Below are positions 48,613 to 53,082 of a DNA stretch of 64,000 bases, one piece after another (position 1 is the stretch's first letter; the number at the start of each line of letters is the position of its first letter). The stretch lies in IMG/VR virus record IMGVR_UViG_3300045988_135453, one strand, 5' to 3'. The DNA comes from a virus. The notes under the pieces are model-generated. The model did not search any database. It worked only from the letters and a program-made list of their open reading frames with translations, and was not told where the DNA came from. Both the position numbers and the translations under genes were made by a program.

Positions 48613-50169
48613 TTATTGCTTTACGATCTTATATTTTAAGGTTATTGTCTTGCCGAATACCTTTGCCAAACATTTTTTAGTATGATTTAAAACGGCAACA
48701 TCCGTGAAATGTGCTTCTATCATTTCCACTTGGGCCTTGCTCGTAGCACCAAGACATACTGTACCGTTCTCAAGCGATATGTACCTAACCCTTCTCAAGT
48801 CAGAAGCAAGTTGTTTGTCAATTAAGTTTAAAAACATCTGCCATTCTTTTTCCCAAGGTTCCTCCTCAACTTCGGCAAAGTTAAACGTCTGCTGCCGTGG
48901 CTCGGGCTTCGCACTATGCTGCTTTATCCATTGCTCCATGATGTAAAACACGAACTCTTCCATCGTACCACTCCATCTATGCGGCTGCTCCACTGCCTTG
49001 TGCACACCATTATAGGCATACGTCTTGAAGTCGTTCCAAAGGTCTTCAGGAACACCGGCAACAAACGTTTTGAGCCGTTCTTCGTCGAGTGTAGGATATA
49101 GCGACATCAGCTTGGCGCACAAACGCTTTTCTGACGAGCCACGATGCAGTTCCAGATCTCGCGCCACACCCAACGGCGTGCGCTTGATATGAAACTTTAT
49201 CTTTTCCGGATTGCCTCGTTTTGCGCTGCCTCTATAAATAGGCTCGTAGCCTTTTTTGTCTGGGTCAACACACGAGAGCATTATCTCTATCTTGTTTTCC
49301 TCGCACAGTCGTTCCATGTCACCACGCGCCACATCCAACACCTGTTTGCGGAACTGTGAGAATTTTTGATATTTCTCAGTAGTCACGACCTTTGCGGGTT
49401 GCGTATCGTCGCTTTTCTCAACGTCTACCTTAAACATACCCAACGCATCTTTCAACTCATGATAGTCTATAACCGGGTGCATCTGCCCTTTGCTCGCATA
49501 CTTCATCAACAGGAGGTAAAGACGTGACGTGTAAGCCGAGTTGCAGAAATAGGCTATTCGTTCAAGATGATTGAAATATCCGTCCGTCATATCAAACACG
49601 GCTTTTGCTACCTCGATGTTGATCGTCACCTCAATATATCCGTCACGTCTAAACTTGCGCACCTCCTGTCCGTCCTCGTCTAACTTTGTACCGCTATCCC
49701 CCGAATAGTTAAGGTCTTCTCCTTCTCGCGACGTGAAATTCTTAGGAATAAATATCTTACTGAAGATAGGCATGTAGTCCTCACCTTTTCTAAGTCCTGT
49801 TGCTGGATCAAAACGCGGAAGGTGAAACTCAATTTTCTTCATTTGGTTTATCACCTTCACCGACTCGTCATAATGACTACTGTCTATACCAAAGTCAGCC
49901 AGACGCAAACGTATCGATCCCATCTTTAGCAGGTCTTCTTTCGTTATGCCTCCATTCGGACGTTCTTTGCTCAAATATCGGTGCTCATTCAAGAACTTGG
50001 CAAAATGGTCTTGCAGTCGTCCGCTTACCAACAACATAACATCCTGCTGTATGAGGGAATAGCTTTTAGCGTATGATGTATAGTTGACGGGCGTGTTAAT
50101 CCAGCGCAGCTCATTTAGGGCAAGTTGTAGTTGGTTTTCTCTATCTTCTTTTCTCGCTTTCTTTGCCAT
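48613..50169 (-). CDS. plasmid-type replication initiator (Rep_3/RepB-like)
   Basis: 518 aa. ...LALNELRWINTPVNYTSYAKSYSLIQQDVMLLVSGRL... and ...FCNSAYTSRLYLLLMKYASKG... resemble iteron-binding Rep_3 initiators. The start codon lies 2 nt from the first iteron. Confidence 0.6.
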   Translation of the reverse strand: MAKKARKEDRENQLQLALNELRWINTPVNYTSYAKSYSLIQQDVMLLVSGRLQDHFAKFLNEHRYLSKERPNGGITKEDLLKMGSIRLRLADFGIDSSHYDESVKVINQMKKIEFHLPRFDPATGLRKGEDYMPIFSKIFIPKNFTSREGEDLNYSGDSGTKLDEDGQEVRKFRRDGYIEVTINIEVAKAVFDMTDGYFNHLERIAYFCNSAYTSRLYLLLMKYASKGQMHPVIDYHELKDALGMFKVDVEKSDDTQPAKVVTTEKYQKFSQFRKQVLDVARGDMERLCEENKIEIMLSCVDPDKKGYEPIYRGSAKRGNPEKIKFHIKRTPLGVARDLELHRGSSEKRLCAKLMSLYPTLDEERLKTFVAGVPEDLWNDFKTYAYNGVHKAVEQPHRWSGTMEEFVFYIMEQWIKQHSAKPEPRQQTFNFAEVEEEPWEKEWQMFLNLIDKQLASDLRRVRYISLENGTVCLGATSKAQVEMIEAHFTDVAVLNHTKKCLAKVFGKTITLKYKIVKQ

Positions 50170-50170
50170 A

Positions 50171-50253
50171 CCTACGTTTTTATTTACTTAAACCTACGTT
50201 TTTATGTACCAAAACCTACGGATTTGTTTACCAACTCCTACGTTTTTGTCTAC
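50171..50253 (+). repeat. four direct 17-nt iterons at 22-nt spacing (ori copy A, left array)
   Basis: CCTACGTTTTTATTTAC (50171), CCTACGTTTTTATGTAC (50193), CCTACGGATTTGTTTAC (50215), CCTACGTTTTTGTCTAC (50237). Confidence 0.9.
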
Positions 50254-50297
50254 TTCGTATGCTCTAACTCGTTGGTTTTCAGCTTCTCAAAAAATCT

Positions 50298-50381
50298 TTA
50301 ATATAATATAATTACAATCTATTATTTTATTCCGTTTTTAAAACAAAAAAAAATCCATATCTTATAATTATATTATATTAA
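50298..50381. repeat. 17-bp perfect inverted repeats flanking a 50-nt AT-rich core (ori copy A)
   Basis: TTAATATAATATAATTA (50298-50314) and its exact complement TAATTATATTATATTAA (50365-50381). Core at 50315-50364. Confidence 0.9.
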
Positions 50382-50425
50382 GAGGTTTTAGAAGAATTGA
50401 TTATCAGTTAGTTATCTACGGTGAA

Positions 50426-50508
50426 GTAAACAAAAACGTAGGAGTTGGTAAACAAATCCGTAGGTTTAAGTAAACAAATCCGTAGGAGTTGGTAAACAAA
50501 TCCGTAGG
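50426..50508 (-). repeat. four iterons in inverted orientation at 22-nt spacing (ori copy A, right array)
   Basis: GTAAACAAAAACGTAGG (50426) and GTAAACAAATCCGTAGG (50448, 50470, 50492). A partial fifth copy, GTAAACCA, lies at 50514. Confidence 0.9.
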
Positions 50509-50573
50509 TGTTGTAAACCAAAACAGCACACTTTTGTAGTGACTTGGTAAAAACTTTATTAGGATTTTACATA

Positions 50574-51131
50574 TTACAAGTCCTCGTTGAGTATCGCCTC
50601 GCTTTTTTCAAAGTTATCCATATCGGTGTACATCAGACAAATAGAAACACCAGACCCGAAGCTGGGCGTTTTCAATGATTGAAGGATAAAACCAATGCTG
50701 TTGCCACCTGTTTCGTCAGGAATATTAAACGCCAGTCCAATAACATCGCCGTCTGGACCTCGGTTTTCCTCGGGCGTGGTGTTAGGATATTTCCGTTGCA
50801 AACTCTCGGTTAAGTTCAAGAAGGGGATATGAGCAGACTCTACAGTTGGATATTGCATTTCAACCGCAGCACTGAACACCATTTTGCTTTTAGGATTATA
50901 AGCAACATTAATCGTAGCGTTCTCACCCATAAACGTGCCGTTAAAGACTCTACAGCCTTGCCCAGCTGCTTTCGACTTCGCTGCATCGTATGTCACGCCC
51001 TTAGCCTTCAGCTTCAAGGCAAAGTTGTCCACCGTTCCGTCTAATGGTATGCCCATAAACTTCATGTGCTGCTGTGCGCTTGCTGCCATACACAGGCAGA
51101 ACGCGAACAATACTGATATTATCTTCTTCAT
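50574..51131 (-). CDS. secreted protein of unknown function between the two ori copies
   Basis: 185 aa with signal peptide MKKIISVLFAFCLCMAASAQQ. No other motif recognised. Confidence 0.6.
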   Translation of the reverse strand: MKKIISVLFAFCLCMAASAQQHMKFMGIPLDGTVDNFALKLKAKGVTYDAAKSKAAGQGCRVFNGTFMGENATINVAYNPKSKMVFSAAVEMQYPTVESAHIPFLNLTESLQRKYPNTTPEENRGPDGDVIGLAFNIPDETGGNSIGFILQSLKTPSFGSGVSICLMYTDMDNFEKSEAILNEDL

Positions 51132-51146
51132 AAGAAATTAGTCTAT

Positions 51147-51407
51147 TACATTTGTTCCTATTTACGTTTTTATATGCCAAAACCTACGTTTTTGTTTACC
51201 AACTCCTACGTTTTTGTTTACTTCGTATGCTCTAACTCGTTGATTTTCAACTTCTCAAAAATTCCTTAACATAATATAATTATAAGATATGAATTTTTTC
51301 GTTTTAAAAAGGAATAAAATAATAACTTATAATTATATCATATTAAGAGGTTTTGGAAGTGTTAATTATCAATTAGTTATCTACAATGATGTAAACAAAT
51401 CCGTAGG
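51147..51407. repeat. second, shorter ori-like module (copy B)
   Basis: One degenerate iteron (51147) plus two exact iterons CCTACGTTTTTGTTTAC (51183, 51205). Same spacer TTCGTATGCTCTAACTCGTTG. IRs TTAACATAATATAATTA (51266-51282) / TAATTATATCATATTAA (51330-51346). One inverted iteron GTAAACAAATCCGTAGG (51391-51407). Confidence 0.85.
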
Positions 51408-51471
51408 TGTTGCAAACCCAAACAGCACACTTTTGTAGTGACTTGGTAAAAAGATTTAGTAGGATTTTACC

Positions 51472-51894
51472 TTACTTATTCCGCTCAACAAACTCATGTA
51501 TTGCTTGCAAAGCGAGGTCCTTCAACGTGCGCCCAGTTTGAAATTTCATCATTGTCAACTGCATATAGTCCTCCATAGGCACGTTTACGACGATGCCGTT
51601 CTCAGTCTTTTTCCCCTTTGTAGCAAATGAGGTGTCTGTCAGGGTTCTTCTATGATTACGCCCTTTGGCTGCTTGTGTCGAGGTGTTTTTGGCTCTATTC
51701 TCTGCTGCTTCACTCTCTTTATTATCGACTACTGCCTCATTCGTAGGCTCAGTTGTTGGTTTTCTTTCCGACTTGGCCACAACAGCAGAAGATTCCTCTT
51801 GCTGTGTACTCTGTGTCAAAAGGGGTGCTTCGCTGTTGTCCCTTATATCGTCTGCCACTTTTTTTACTGGCGAATCGTTCCAATTAAATCCCAT
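51472..51894 (-). CDS. ParG/RHH-like centromere-binding protein candidate
   Basis: 140 aa. Disordered charged N-terminal two thirds, then IVVNVPMEDYMQLTMMKFQTGRTLKDLALQAIHEFVERNK (strand-helix-helix pattern). Directly downstream of parA. Confidence 0.5.
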   Translation of the reverse strand: MGFNWNDSPVKKVADDIRDNSEAPLLTQSTQQEESSAVVAKSERKPTTEPTNEAVVDNKESEAAENRAKNTSTQAAKGRNHRRTLTDTSFATKGKKTENGIVVNVPMEDYMQLTMMKFQTGRTLKDLALQAIHEFVERNK

Positions 51895-51906
51895 GGTTAT
51901 CTCTTT

Positions 51907-52749
51907 TTATTGATTCTTGAATGTGTCAACTATTTCTTTTGCAAACGCCTCATAGCTCTGAGCTGCGTCACAGTCGGGAGCATAAGTGAAGATGTCCTGC
52001 ATCATCGCCTGGGCTTCCACAATCTTTGTGCGACGCGGAATCTCTGTCTTGAACACATAACTGCCGTATTCCTCATCAATATGTTTCGAGAAGCCCACGC
52101 TTGCCTTTGTGCGCTTGTCAACCATCACCTTCAGCAGTCCGCGAAGTTCAAGGTTGGGGTTAATCTCGTTTCTCACTTCCTTTGCCCAGTGTATCACGCT
52201 TGACGAGCCAAATGTTGGCAGCGCTTCAAGCTGCATGGGGATGATGATGCCTGTTGCCACAGACATGGCGTTCTTGGTCACGAGGTTCATGGCAGGAGGA
52301 CAGTCGATGATGATATAGTCGAAGGCTTCTATTACACTCTGCTTGCCGCCTTTGTCTTCTGGGAGCACTACGGGTAATGCGAACAACTTACACAGCACTT
52401 TTAATGGGTTCAACTCACGCAGCAGAAACGGCTCCACGTTTAGCATGTCTTCAGATGAAGGAGCGATAAAAAGGTTGCCGTAATAGTCCTGCTTGTCAAT
52501 GCTCACCTGGTACACAGGCATCGCAGTCTTGTCTACCAAGGCTTCGTACATTGTGCCGTGCTTGTCCTGACGATCACGCCAGCCGCACAGCAACGAAACG
52601 TTCGCAACCTGAGCATCGAGGTCTACAATAAGCACTCGCATGTCTGGGTTCAGCTTGATCAATCCGCAAGCCAAATTGTGGGCAGTTGTGCTCTTACCCA
52701 CCCCGCCTTTGTCATTCACAATGGCGAGAACTTCTCTTAGTCTTTCCAT
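51907..52749 (-). CDS. parA: ParA/Soj-family partition ATPase
   Basis: Deviant Walker A LAIVNDKGGVGKSTTAHNLA, then VLIVDLDAQ. The track start 52758 is TTG; the ATG at 52749 (MERLREV...) is preferred. Confidence 0.9.
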   Translation of the reverse strand: MERLREVLAIVNDKGGVGKSTTAHNLACGLIKLNPDMRVLIVDLDAQVANVSLLCGWRDRQDKHGTMYEALVDKTAMPVYQVSIDKQDYYGNLFIAPSSEDMLNVEPFLLRELNPLKVLCKLFALPVVLPEDKGGKQSVIEAFDYIIIDCPPAMNLVTKNAMSVATGIIIPMQLEALPTFGSSSVIHWAKEVRNEINPNLELRGLLKVMVDKRTKASVGFSKHIDEEYGSYVFKTEIPRRTKIVEAQAMMQDIFTYAPDCDAAQSYEAFAKEIVDTFKNQ

Positions 52750-52804
52750 AATTATCAATATTAAAATGTTTTACGCTGCAAATTTAAGAATAATATTTAA
52801 CCTT

Positions 52805-53035
52805 ACCAAATTTTTATCTACTTATTTATTTACCTATTTACTTACGCATTTATCTATCTACCTATTTACCTACTTACCTAAATATTTATCTAAGTATTTA
52901 TCTAAATATCTAACAACCTATTTACATACATAAGTAAGTAAGTAAATATGTAAATAAAAGCCTATATAGTTATCTATGTAGATAAATAAATATATAGGTA
53001 AATAAATATATAAGTACGTTCGTAAATACTAACGT
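52805..53035. repeat. centromere-like array of short AT-rich repeats upstream of parA
   Basis: At least 8 forward TATTTAC / TTTATCTA words (52813-52925), followed by at least 5 inverted GTAAATA / TAGATAAA words (52938-53030). No ORF. Confidence 0.5.
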
Positions 53036-53082
53036 AAGTACTAAAATACAGAAATATAAAAGTATTAAAGTATAAAAGTATC

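Follow-up and report, generated by a model that had tools for sequence, protein, structure and literature searches.

A 64,000-nucleotide (nt) stretch of the IMG/VR virus record IMGVR_UViG_3300045988_135453 (hereafter the window) carries two copies of an iteron module in direct orientation, and the short AT-rich core at the center of one copy is reversed relative to that of the other. The window is part of a tailed phage-plasmid of about 100 kb with a human gut Prevotella/Segatella host. Module A (50170-50570) adjoins rep, the gene for the replication initiator (Rep), and module B (51161-51470) lies on the far side of a gene designated orf185. Comparison of the two modules with those of related contigs suggests that the reversed core is probably an ancient, fixed micro-inversion in a fossil origin copy, module B, which arose at the arms of an inverted repeat without a dedicated recombinase, and that it is not a switch. 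The coordinates, sequences, and direct orientation of the two origin-like modules are as an earlier note on this DNA had described them.

The core of each module lies between 17-bp inverted repeats (IRs). In module A these repeats, TTAATATAATATAATTA at 50298-50314 and its perfect complement at 50365-50381, enclose an AT-rich core of 50 nt at 50315-50364. In module B the arms at 51266-51282 and 51330-51346 enclose a core of 47 nt at 51283-51329 and, as the earlier note had it, carry one mismatch each. The flanks of the two modules align directly at ca. 85 to 97% identity (repeat families D1, 85%; D4, 79%; D5, 97%) and are 89% identical when the core is left out. Global alignment of core A with core B scored 32 for the reverse complement versus 17 for the direct orientation; 2,000 alignments of shuffled cores had a mean score of -3.5 (standard deviation, 4.5) and a maximum of 17. 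Three blocks, of 13, 10, and 9 nt, are identical between core A and the reverse complement of core B. The direct score remains appreciable owing to the quasi-palindromic nature of the core (T-rich, then TTTTAAAA, then A-rich), which has ca. 0.66 identity to its own reverse complement; therefore only about 10 positions discriminate orientation in any one pair. The anatomy of an IR-bounded core also needs some adjustment: the 17-bp arms are present, but they extend imperfectly to ca. 25 bp (perfectly so in some relatives, L010 among them), so that the truly asymmetric inverted part is only ca. 30 nt.

The comparison was extended to distinct central segments, 31 of the A type and 5 of the B type, extracted with nhmmer flank profiles. 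Between B and A cores the reverse complement matched better in 155 of 155 comparisons (mean identity, 0.78, and up to 0.90, versus 0.67 direct), and between A cores the direct orientation matched better in 463 of 465 (0.80 versus 0.64). It might be argued that no inversion event took place, that AT-rich quasi-palindromic cores simply drifted apart, and that the better match in reverse complement arose by chance. A direct score equal to the best of 2,000 shuffles, together with self-complementarity of ca. 66%, could be cited for such drift. However, the reverse-complement identity of B to A cores equals the level found directly among A cores, the direct identity of B to A cores equals the palindromic baseline, and both the unanimity of the family-wide comparisons and the long identical blocks speak for a reversal. 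The family-wide comparison thus refutes chance resemblance of drifted cores, an explanation to which we attach almost no probability. The earlier observation that the cores align only in reverse complement holds for the pair and across the family, and these alignments indicate that an IR-bounded inversion of the core did occur between the copies.

The orientation of the core is the same in every sequence of a given module type. The related loci that were retrieved (40 from IMG/VR, 17 from metagenomes, and 2 from metagenome-assembled genomes) come from contigs of 50 to 103 kb derived from human gut metagenomes and Prevotella metagenome-assembled genomes, and nearly all relatives have a single module, beside rep. 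Rep-adjacent modules had the A orientation in 31 of 31 distinct sequences, representing ca. 45 related contigs with Rep identity down to 78%. B-type modules, which are recognizable by their arm substitutions (TTAAC..., ...TATATC...) and their left junction, were inverted in all five distinct sequences, from at least 17 independent gut metagenome assemblies; carriers include the window, IMG/VR contigs 116152 and 128629, ERZ1034915, ERZ1026772, ORMS01000199, OBTM01000015, and OJKP01000796. Through exact-protein look-ups, the B center of the window was found unchanged in nine independent ENA assemblies, all from separate samples, and B was inverted in each of the nine. Six of these assemblies include module A, which was direct in all six, and five of the six are 99.9 to 100% identical to the window over 50101-51500. 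As a marker of the inverted orientation we used a 49-codon open reading frame (ORF; 51289-51438, plus strand) for which only the inverted B core supplies an ATG and which runs on through the right IR, the spacer, and an iteron. The 49-amino-acid (aa) product is indexed in 40 to 41 collection blocks, versus 29 for the exact orf185 protein. Dozens of public assemblies annotate this ORF as a gene, and it is almost certainly an annotation artifact. When IMG/VR was scanned for B-type arms and the core was left free, every copy was inverted. A scan in which an inverted core had to follow the left spacer matched B copies alone. A search of IMG/VR with a generic 19-mer of the right arm returned mostly chance matches in AT-rich viruses and no new family members.

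Thus, as far as the assembled sequences indicate, orientation tracks the identity of the paralogue perfectly and does not vary within a lineage, which argues for one old, fixed event rather than a switch. An assembly artifact was rejected as the source of the pattern because the same state recurs in many independent assemblies and the B copies have diverged from one another. The proposal that a segment bounded by inverted repeats and found in both orientations is the signature of DNA inversion was therefore borne out as regards a past inversion, with reverse-complement cores between collinear flanks, but not as regards a live invertible element. The earlier note had itself named a single arrangement among relatives as the outcome that reduces the switch to an ancient fixed inversion, and this is the outcome that the consensus assemblies match.

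Module B differs from module A in more than its core. Its direct iterons (51161-51225, plus strand) comprise one degenerate and two intact copies (51183-51199 and 51205-51221), followed by a left spacer (51226-51265, plus strand) in which the CGTATGCTCTAACTCGTTG block is intact and by the AT-rich imperfect palindrome (51266-51346) formed by the arms and the inverted core. The right part (51347-51470, plus strand) consists of a spacer, a single inverted iteron (51391-51407), and single sites of two other iteron types described below (L-type, 51425-51442; T-type, 51445-51470). Three inverted iterons are missing, which appears as a 66-bp gap in the alignment with A. Iterons are thus present in both copies, as had been noted, but instead of the four direct and four inverted iterons of A, module B has two intact direct, one degenerate direct, and one inverted; three sites are within 0 to 2 mismatches of the iteron consensus, and five of eight are lost. 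At its left edge, what remains of an orf140-like gene, 16 nt from its 3' end (TTACATTTGTTCCTAT, 51146-51161, minus strand), is fused to iteron 2. The same 16 nt form the end of the gene directly preceding orf185 in the single-module relatives L010, L018, L022, and L013, and the fusion is the recombination junction that created module B.

Outside the core, module B is ca. 11% diverged from the A module of its own genome and equally distant from the modules of other lineages; therefore it is not a recent in situ duplicate of A, a possibility that was also rejected because of the foreign junction. The left junction recurs in L135 (OJKP01000796), where a B module that is 12% diverged but still inverted lies between two orf185 paralogues, away from rep. 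The 102-kb scaffold ERZ28642397 (L157/L163) has a backbone syntenic with the window and a B module that, with its neighbors, is 97.6% identical over 1.7 kb. In L163 this module is found beside a 389-aa Rep of another type, which has its own origin with different 21-bp iterons. The description of a duplicated origin therefore holds in that there are two modules, but the second is degenerate, diverged, bounded by a junction at its left edge, and found also beside another Rep type. Module B is best read, from its structure, as a fossil origin left by illegitimate recombination and exchange of rep-ori cassettes. On a single occasion, illegitimate recombination would have fused iteron 2 with the 3' terminus of an orf140-like gene that preceded a member of the orf185 family, after which B would have lost three inverted iterons in a 66-bp deletion and had the center of its palindrome micro-inverted. 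We infer that B no longer fires as an origin.

A plausible route to the reversal of the core makes use of the arms themselves. While DNA is being replicated or repaired, arms of 17 to 25 bp could anneal on one strand or between sister strands, and either a double template switch or recombination between the arms would then copy the center of ca. 30 to 50 nt in reverse. No dedicated recombinase would be needed, and a single such event, once fixed, would have been inherited by every later B-type copy. A template-switch or IR-recombination mechanism is suggested by analogy with documented cases: template switching between IR arms homogenizes the arms and inverts the spacers (PMC8604942), and hairpin-associated small inversions of 4 to 50 bp are pervasive in plastid noncoding DNA (PMC12371153). 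The features that mark IR-spacer micro-inversions are found here, namely, arms capable of forming a hairpin, a reversed interior between collinear flanks, and one state per lineage. The arm substitutions in B are uninformative as to template switching or arm recombination. The inverted segment belongs to a long, imperfect, AT-rich palindrome within an origin, and origin DNA, which is repeatedly unwound, would by the same analogy be the kind of site where IR-spacer inversions arise. Of the three mechanisms that had been proposed, IR-mediated recombination or hairpin (cruciform) processing provides the best explanation, whereas site-specific recombination found no support, there being no recombinase family in the window.

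The alternative of a programmed switch deserves consideration, because an IR-bounded segment is present in two orientations within one genome and because Bacteroidota, the hosts, are known for many trans-acting invertases. In such phase variation, a site-specific recombinase encoded elsewhere on the phage-plasmid or by the host would flip the core between the 17-bp IRs. However, a search with Pfam of the ca. 59 window ORFs of at least 120 aa revealed no serine or tyrosine recombinase family, which at that level agrees with the earlier statement that no invertase is seen in the window. The alternative state was found neither in the ca. 45 A-type contigs nor in the at least 17 B-type assemblies, including the nine with a B center identical to that of the window, and contigs assemble through the region without breaks at the inverted repeats. 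The idea that inversion flips a promoter or the unwinding element relative to rep and orf185 was not supported either. No Bacteroidota-type promoter (TAnnTTTG with an upstream TTTG, at -7/-33, in strict and one-mismatch searches) was found on the gene strand of either module, and a scan for sigma-70-like matches (9, versus 4.8±2.3 expected) is uninformative in DNA this rich in A and T. Both modules face their downstream genes in the same way and on the same strand; therefore the idea of a differential promoter orientation is without support, and orientation has no obvious differential target. The programmed-switch reading is disfavored, and we consider it highly improbable.

It is also possible, although we think it unlikely, that the inversion is fixed but functional. 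Flipping an asymmetric unwinding element would stop B from firing, and the remaining iterons, predicted still to bind Rep, would make B a locus of Rep titration, handcuffing, or incompatibility (an iteron decoy); alternatively, B could serve as a regulated region upstream of an orf185-family gene. Module B does retain three consensus iterons, its iterons and left spacer block are perfectly kept between the window and the 12%-diverged B of L135, it always lies directly upstream of the start codon of orf185 or its paralogue orf188, in three different contexts, and it persists in a genome with another Rep type, in which it might counter W-type competitors, that is, those with the Rep type of the window. 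In its most elaborate form, this proposal makes B a cassette: a disarmed origin that has an inverted core and has lost most of its iterons but can still bind W-type Rep. Such a cassette would move together with the orf185/188 gene among phage-plasmids that differ in Rep type, and it would tune copy number or exert incompatibility against W-type competitors, the inversion being the step that stopped firing. This more specific version we regard as doubtful, although it is conceivable from the sequence that the inversion disabled the unwinding element at B. Most relatives lack a second module, so that it is not a required control element; neither module has a Bacteroidota-type promoter motif on the coding strand; inversion of a quasi-palindromic core alters only the ca. 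10 discriminating positions; and the conservation could stem from recent exchange rather than selection.

An ancient, fixed micro-inversion in a relic of an origin thus remains the reading that we prefer, but several points weigh against it. The inverted segment, at ca. 30 to 50 nt, is at the upper end of documented sizes for hairpin-loop inversions. Only consensus assemblies were compared, and these would not reveal a less frequent orientation in the same sample. Roughly one third of the genome of the phage-plasmid falls outside the window, and the host could supply recombinases in trans. Furthermore, 89 nt over the iterons and the CGTATGCTCTAACTCGTTGATTTTCA left-spacer block are identical between the B modules of the window and L135, while the remainder is ca. 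10 to 25% diverged. Selection for Rep binding or some other function may thus continue to act on module B, in which case "fossil" is perhaps too strong a term; this identity and the constant position before an orf185-family start codon leave room for a residual function.

Module A, in contrast to B, has the complete arrangement. It begins with four direct 22-bp iterons (50170-50257, plus strand; core, CCTACGTTTTTGTTTAC) and a left spacer (50258-50297, plus strand) with a CGTATGCTCTAACTCGTTG block that is strongly conserved in an alignment of 35 modules of the family. The AT-rich imperfect palindrome (50298-50381), which holds the core in its ancestral orientation, is followed by a right spacer (50382-50425, plus strand) with conserved TTGATTATCAG...TTATCTACGG and by four inverted 22-bp iterons (50426-50513, minus strand; iteron matches with a period of 22). 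The tail after the inverted iterons begins AACAGCACACTTTTGTAGTGACTTGGTAAAAA, and single sites of other types are located at the right end (50526-50570, plus strand), one L-type (GCACACTTTTGTAGTGAC, 50526-50543) and one T-type (GGTAAAAACTTTATTAGGATTTTAC, 50546-50570). All 11 iteron matches in the window fall inside modules A and B, with 0.2 expected by chance. With tandem iterons of ca. 22 bp beside rep and an adjoining AT-rich region, as in iteron-type origins, module A is predicted to be a working origin in which four direct and four inverted Rep sites surround an AT-rich imperfect palindrome of ca. 85 bp directly upstream of rep. Folded as single-stranded DNA, the IRs and core of module A give one long imperfect hairpin (-13.8 kcal/mol; z, -4.2), and those of module B give a hairpin of -13.9 kcal/mol (z, -3.6); overall, z ranged from -3.6 to -4.6. 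An Rfam scan yielded only far-subthreshold matches to plant microRNA hairpins, attributed to the palindrome. The length of an A run in core A (window 50344-50353 and homologous sites in L001, L027, L131, and L134) varies from A7 to A9 among near-identical relatives, which is simple homopolymer slippage within the unwinding region.

The same origin scaffold (direct iterons, spacer, AT-rich palindrome, GATTATCAG spacer, and inverted iterons) was found with at least three Rep/iteron specificities. The W type, that of the window, has the iteron CCTACGTTTTTGTTTAC. The L type has the iteron GTCACTACAAAAGTGTGC and a Rep that is 37 to 43% identical (L034, 4520-4960; L036, 4540-4960). The T type, seen in L157 and L163 (3930-4270), has the iteron TTACTAAATCTTTTTACCT and the 389-aa Rep, with identities of 23% in the N-terminal part and 51% in the C-terminal 115 aa. 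At the end nearer par, each type also has single sites belonging to the other types. In W modules these terminal sites are one L site and one T site (window 50526-50570 and 51425-51470), and L modules have a palindromic pair of W sites and one T site. These mixed sites could be a layered record of the replacement of rep-ori cassettes or could be sites of cross talk.

On the minus strand, the order of genes and modules is parA, orf140, B, orf185, A, rep. The rep gene (48613-50169, minus strand) encodes the W-type initiator of 518 aa, and its start codon abuts the first iteron of module A. Its product is ca. 30% identical to those of Segatella and Prevotella genes annotated "RepB family plasmid replication initiator" (tblastn; E value, 4e-37); matches to Rep3_N (Pfam) and RepM (NCBIfam) were below the curated cutoffs, and a sequence search of the PDB with Rep gave no match. 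Between the modules lies orf185 (50574-51131, minus strand), whose product has a signal-peptide-like N terminus and matches no family. The orf185 family is variable among relatives: it is sometimes duplicated, and only some relatives have it in the interval from the origin to the par operon (window, 50574-51131; L135, 4204-4761 and 5111-5677; L163, 4276-4842); orf188 is a paralogue with 54% identity. Recombination breakpoints occur inside orf185, and module B is always found together with its 5' end.

The partition operon (51472-52758, minus strand) comprises a ParA ATPase gene (51907-52758; AAA_31, 3.5e-34, and phrog_164) and orf140 (51472-51894), which encodes a small 140-aa partner with a C terminus that looks ribbon-helix-helix-like. 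Directly upstream of parA, at 52802-53081, are arrays of 8- to 12-bp tandem repeats, such as nine copies of TTTATCTACCTA, which are likely the partition centromere or operator of the ParA and small-partner system. Module B is unlikely to be the partition centromere because this separate array, with a 12-bp repeat, sits upstream of parA. Over 51472-52758 the relative L034 (IMGVR 3300045988_130872) is 91% identical to the window in orf140 and 94% in parA at the nucleotide level, yet its Rep is only 43% identical. The boundary of the origin module with the par operon appears, from such comparisons, to be a recombination hot spot.

Phage genes in the window include those for a terminase, a head protease, and a 2,062-aa tape measure protein. 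The window also encodes a LysR regulator, ThyX, guanylate kinase, MazG, a DNA polymerase III beta clamp, two DNA methyltransferases, and a 1,242-aa DUF5906 protein. No close match to the element was found in INPHARED or PLSDB, and a megablast search with the region against plasmid and phage collections returned nothing.

A true switch would have represented a new mode of regulating a replication origin; the evidence instead points to an ordinary fixed micro-inversion. As such, it offers a clean bacterial or phage example of IR-spacer inversion and a dependable lineage marker for the B cassette, along with a warning that gene callers make a spurious 49-aa gene from the inverted core. The presence of one origin scaffold in at least three Rep/iteron types is a more intriguing by-product than the inversion itself. 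This uncharacterized family of gut Prevotella/Segatella phage-plasmid origins with swappable specificities could merit study for incompatibility and vector design.

Comparison with known systems places the inversion among the micro-inversions of IR spacers or hairpin loops (PMC8604942, PMC12371153): a short IR-flanked segment is reversed while its flanks remain collinear, the DNA is AT-rich and noncoding, no recombinase is evident, and the change is rare and heritable. Unlike the documented cases, it is at the center of the palindrome of a plasmid-type origin in a phage-plasmid, its ca. 30 to 50 nt are at the upper end of reported sizes, and the more than 30 lineages of the sister copy show no second occurrence. 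Programmed invertible promoters and shufflons, such as Hin/Gin/Cin, Fim, and the invertons of Bacteroides, likewise feature an IR-bounded segment seen in two orientations, but here neither locus is polymorphic, no recombinase was found in the window, and no promoter was identifiable. The IR-bounded segment is also far shorter than typical invertons. The auxiliary iteron clusters of iteron plasmids and phage-plasmids, such as P1 incA and F incC, are located near rep but outside the active origin. Module B resembles them as a second iteron set in such a position, with three consensus iterons outside the origin. Unlike them, it keeps a whole origin scaffold with spacers and palindrome, and rather than being a conserved component accompanying its cognate Rep, it is absent from most relatives and occurs beside a heterologous Rep (the noncognate 389-aa protein in L163). 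Therefore a dedicated role in copy control is unproven. The closest likeness for the origin itself is to the Rep_3/RepB-family origins of Prevotella and Segatella plasmids, with an initiator of ca. 30% identity, 22-bp tandem iterons that abut rep, and an AT-rich neighbor. The family described here differs from them in its twofold symmetry (four direct and four inverted iterons around a palindrome), its occurrence in a tailed phage-plasmid, and its at least three interchangeable specificities. The reversed core is thus a fresh example of a mutation type already known, found in a family of origins not described before.

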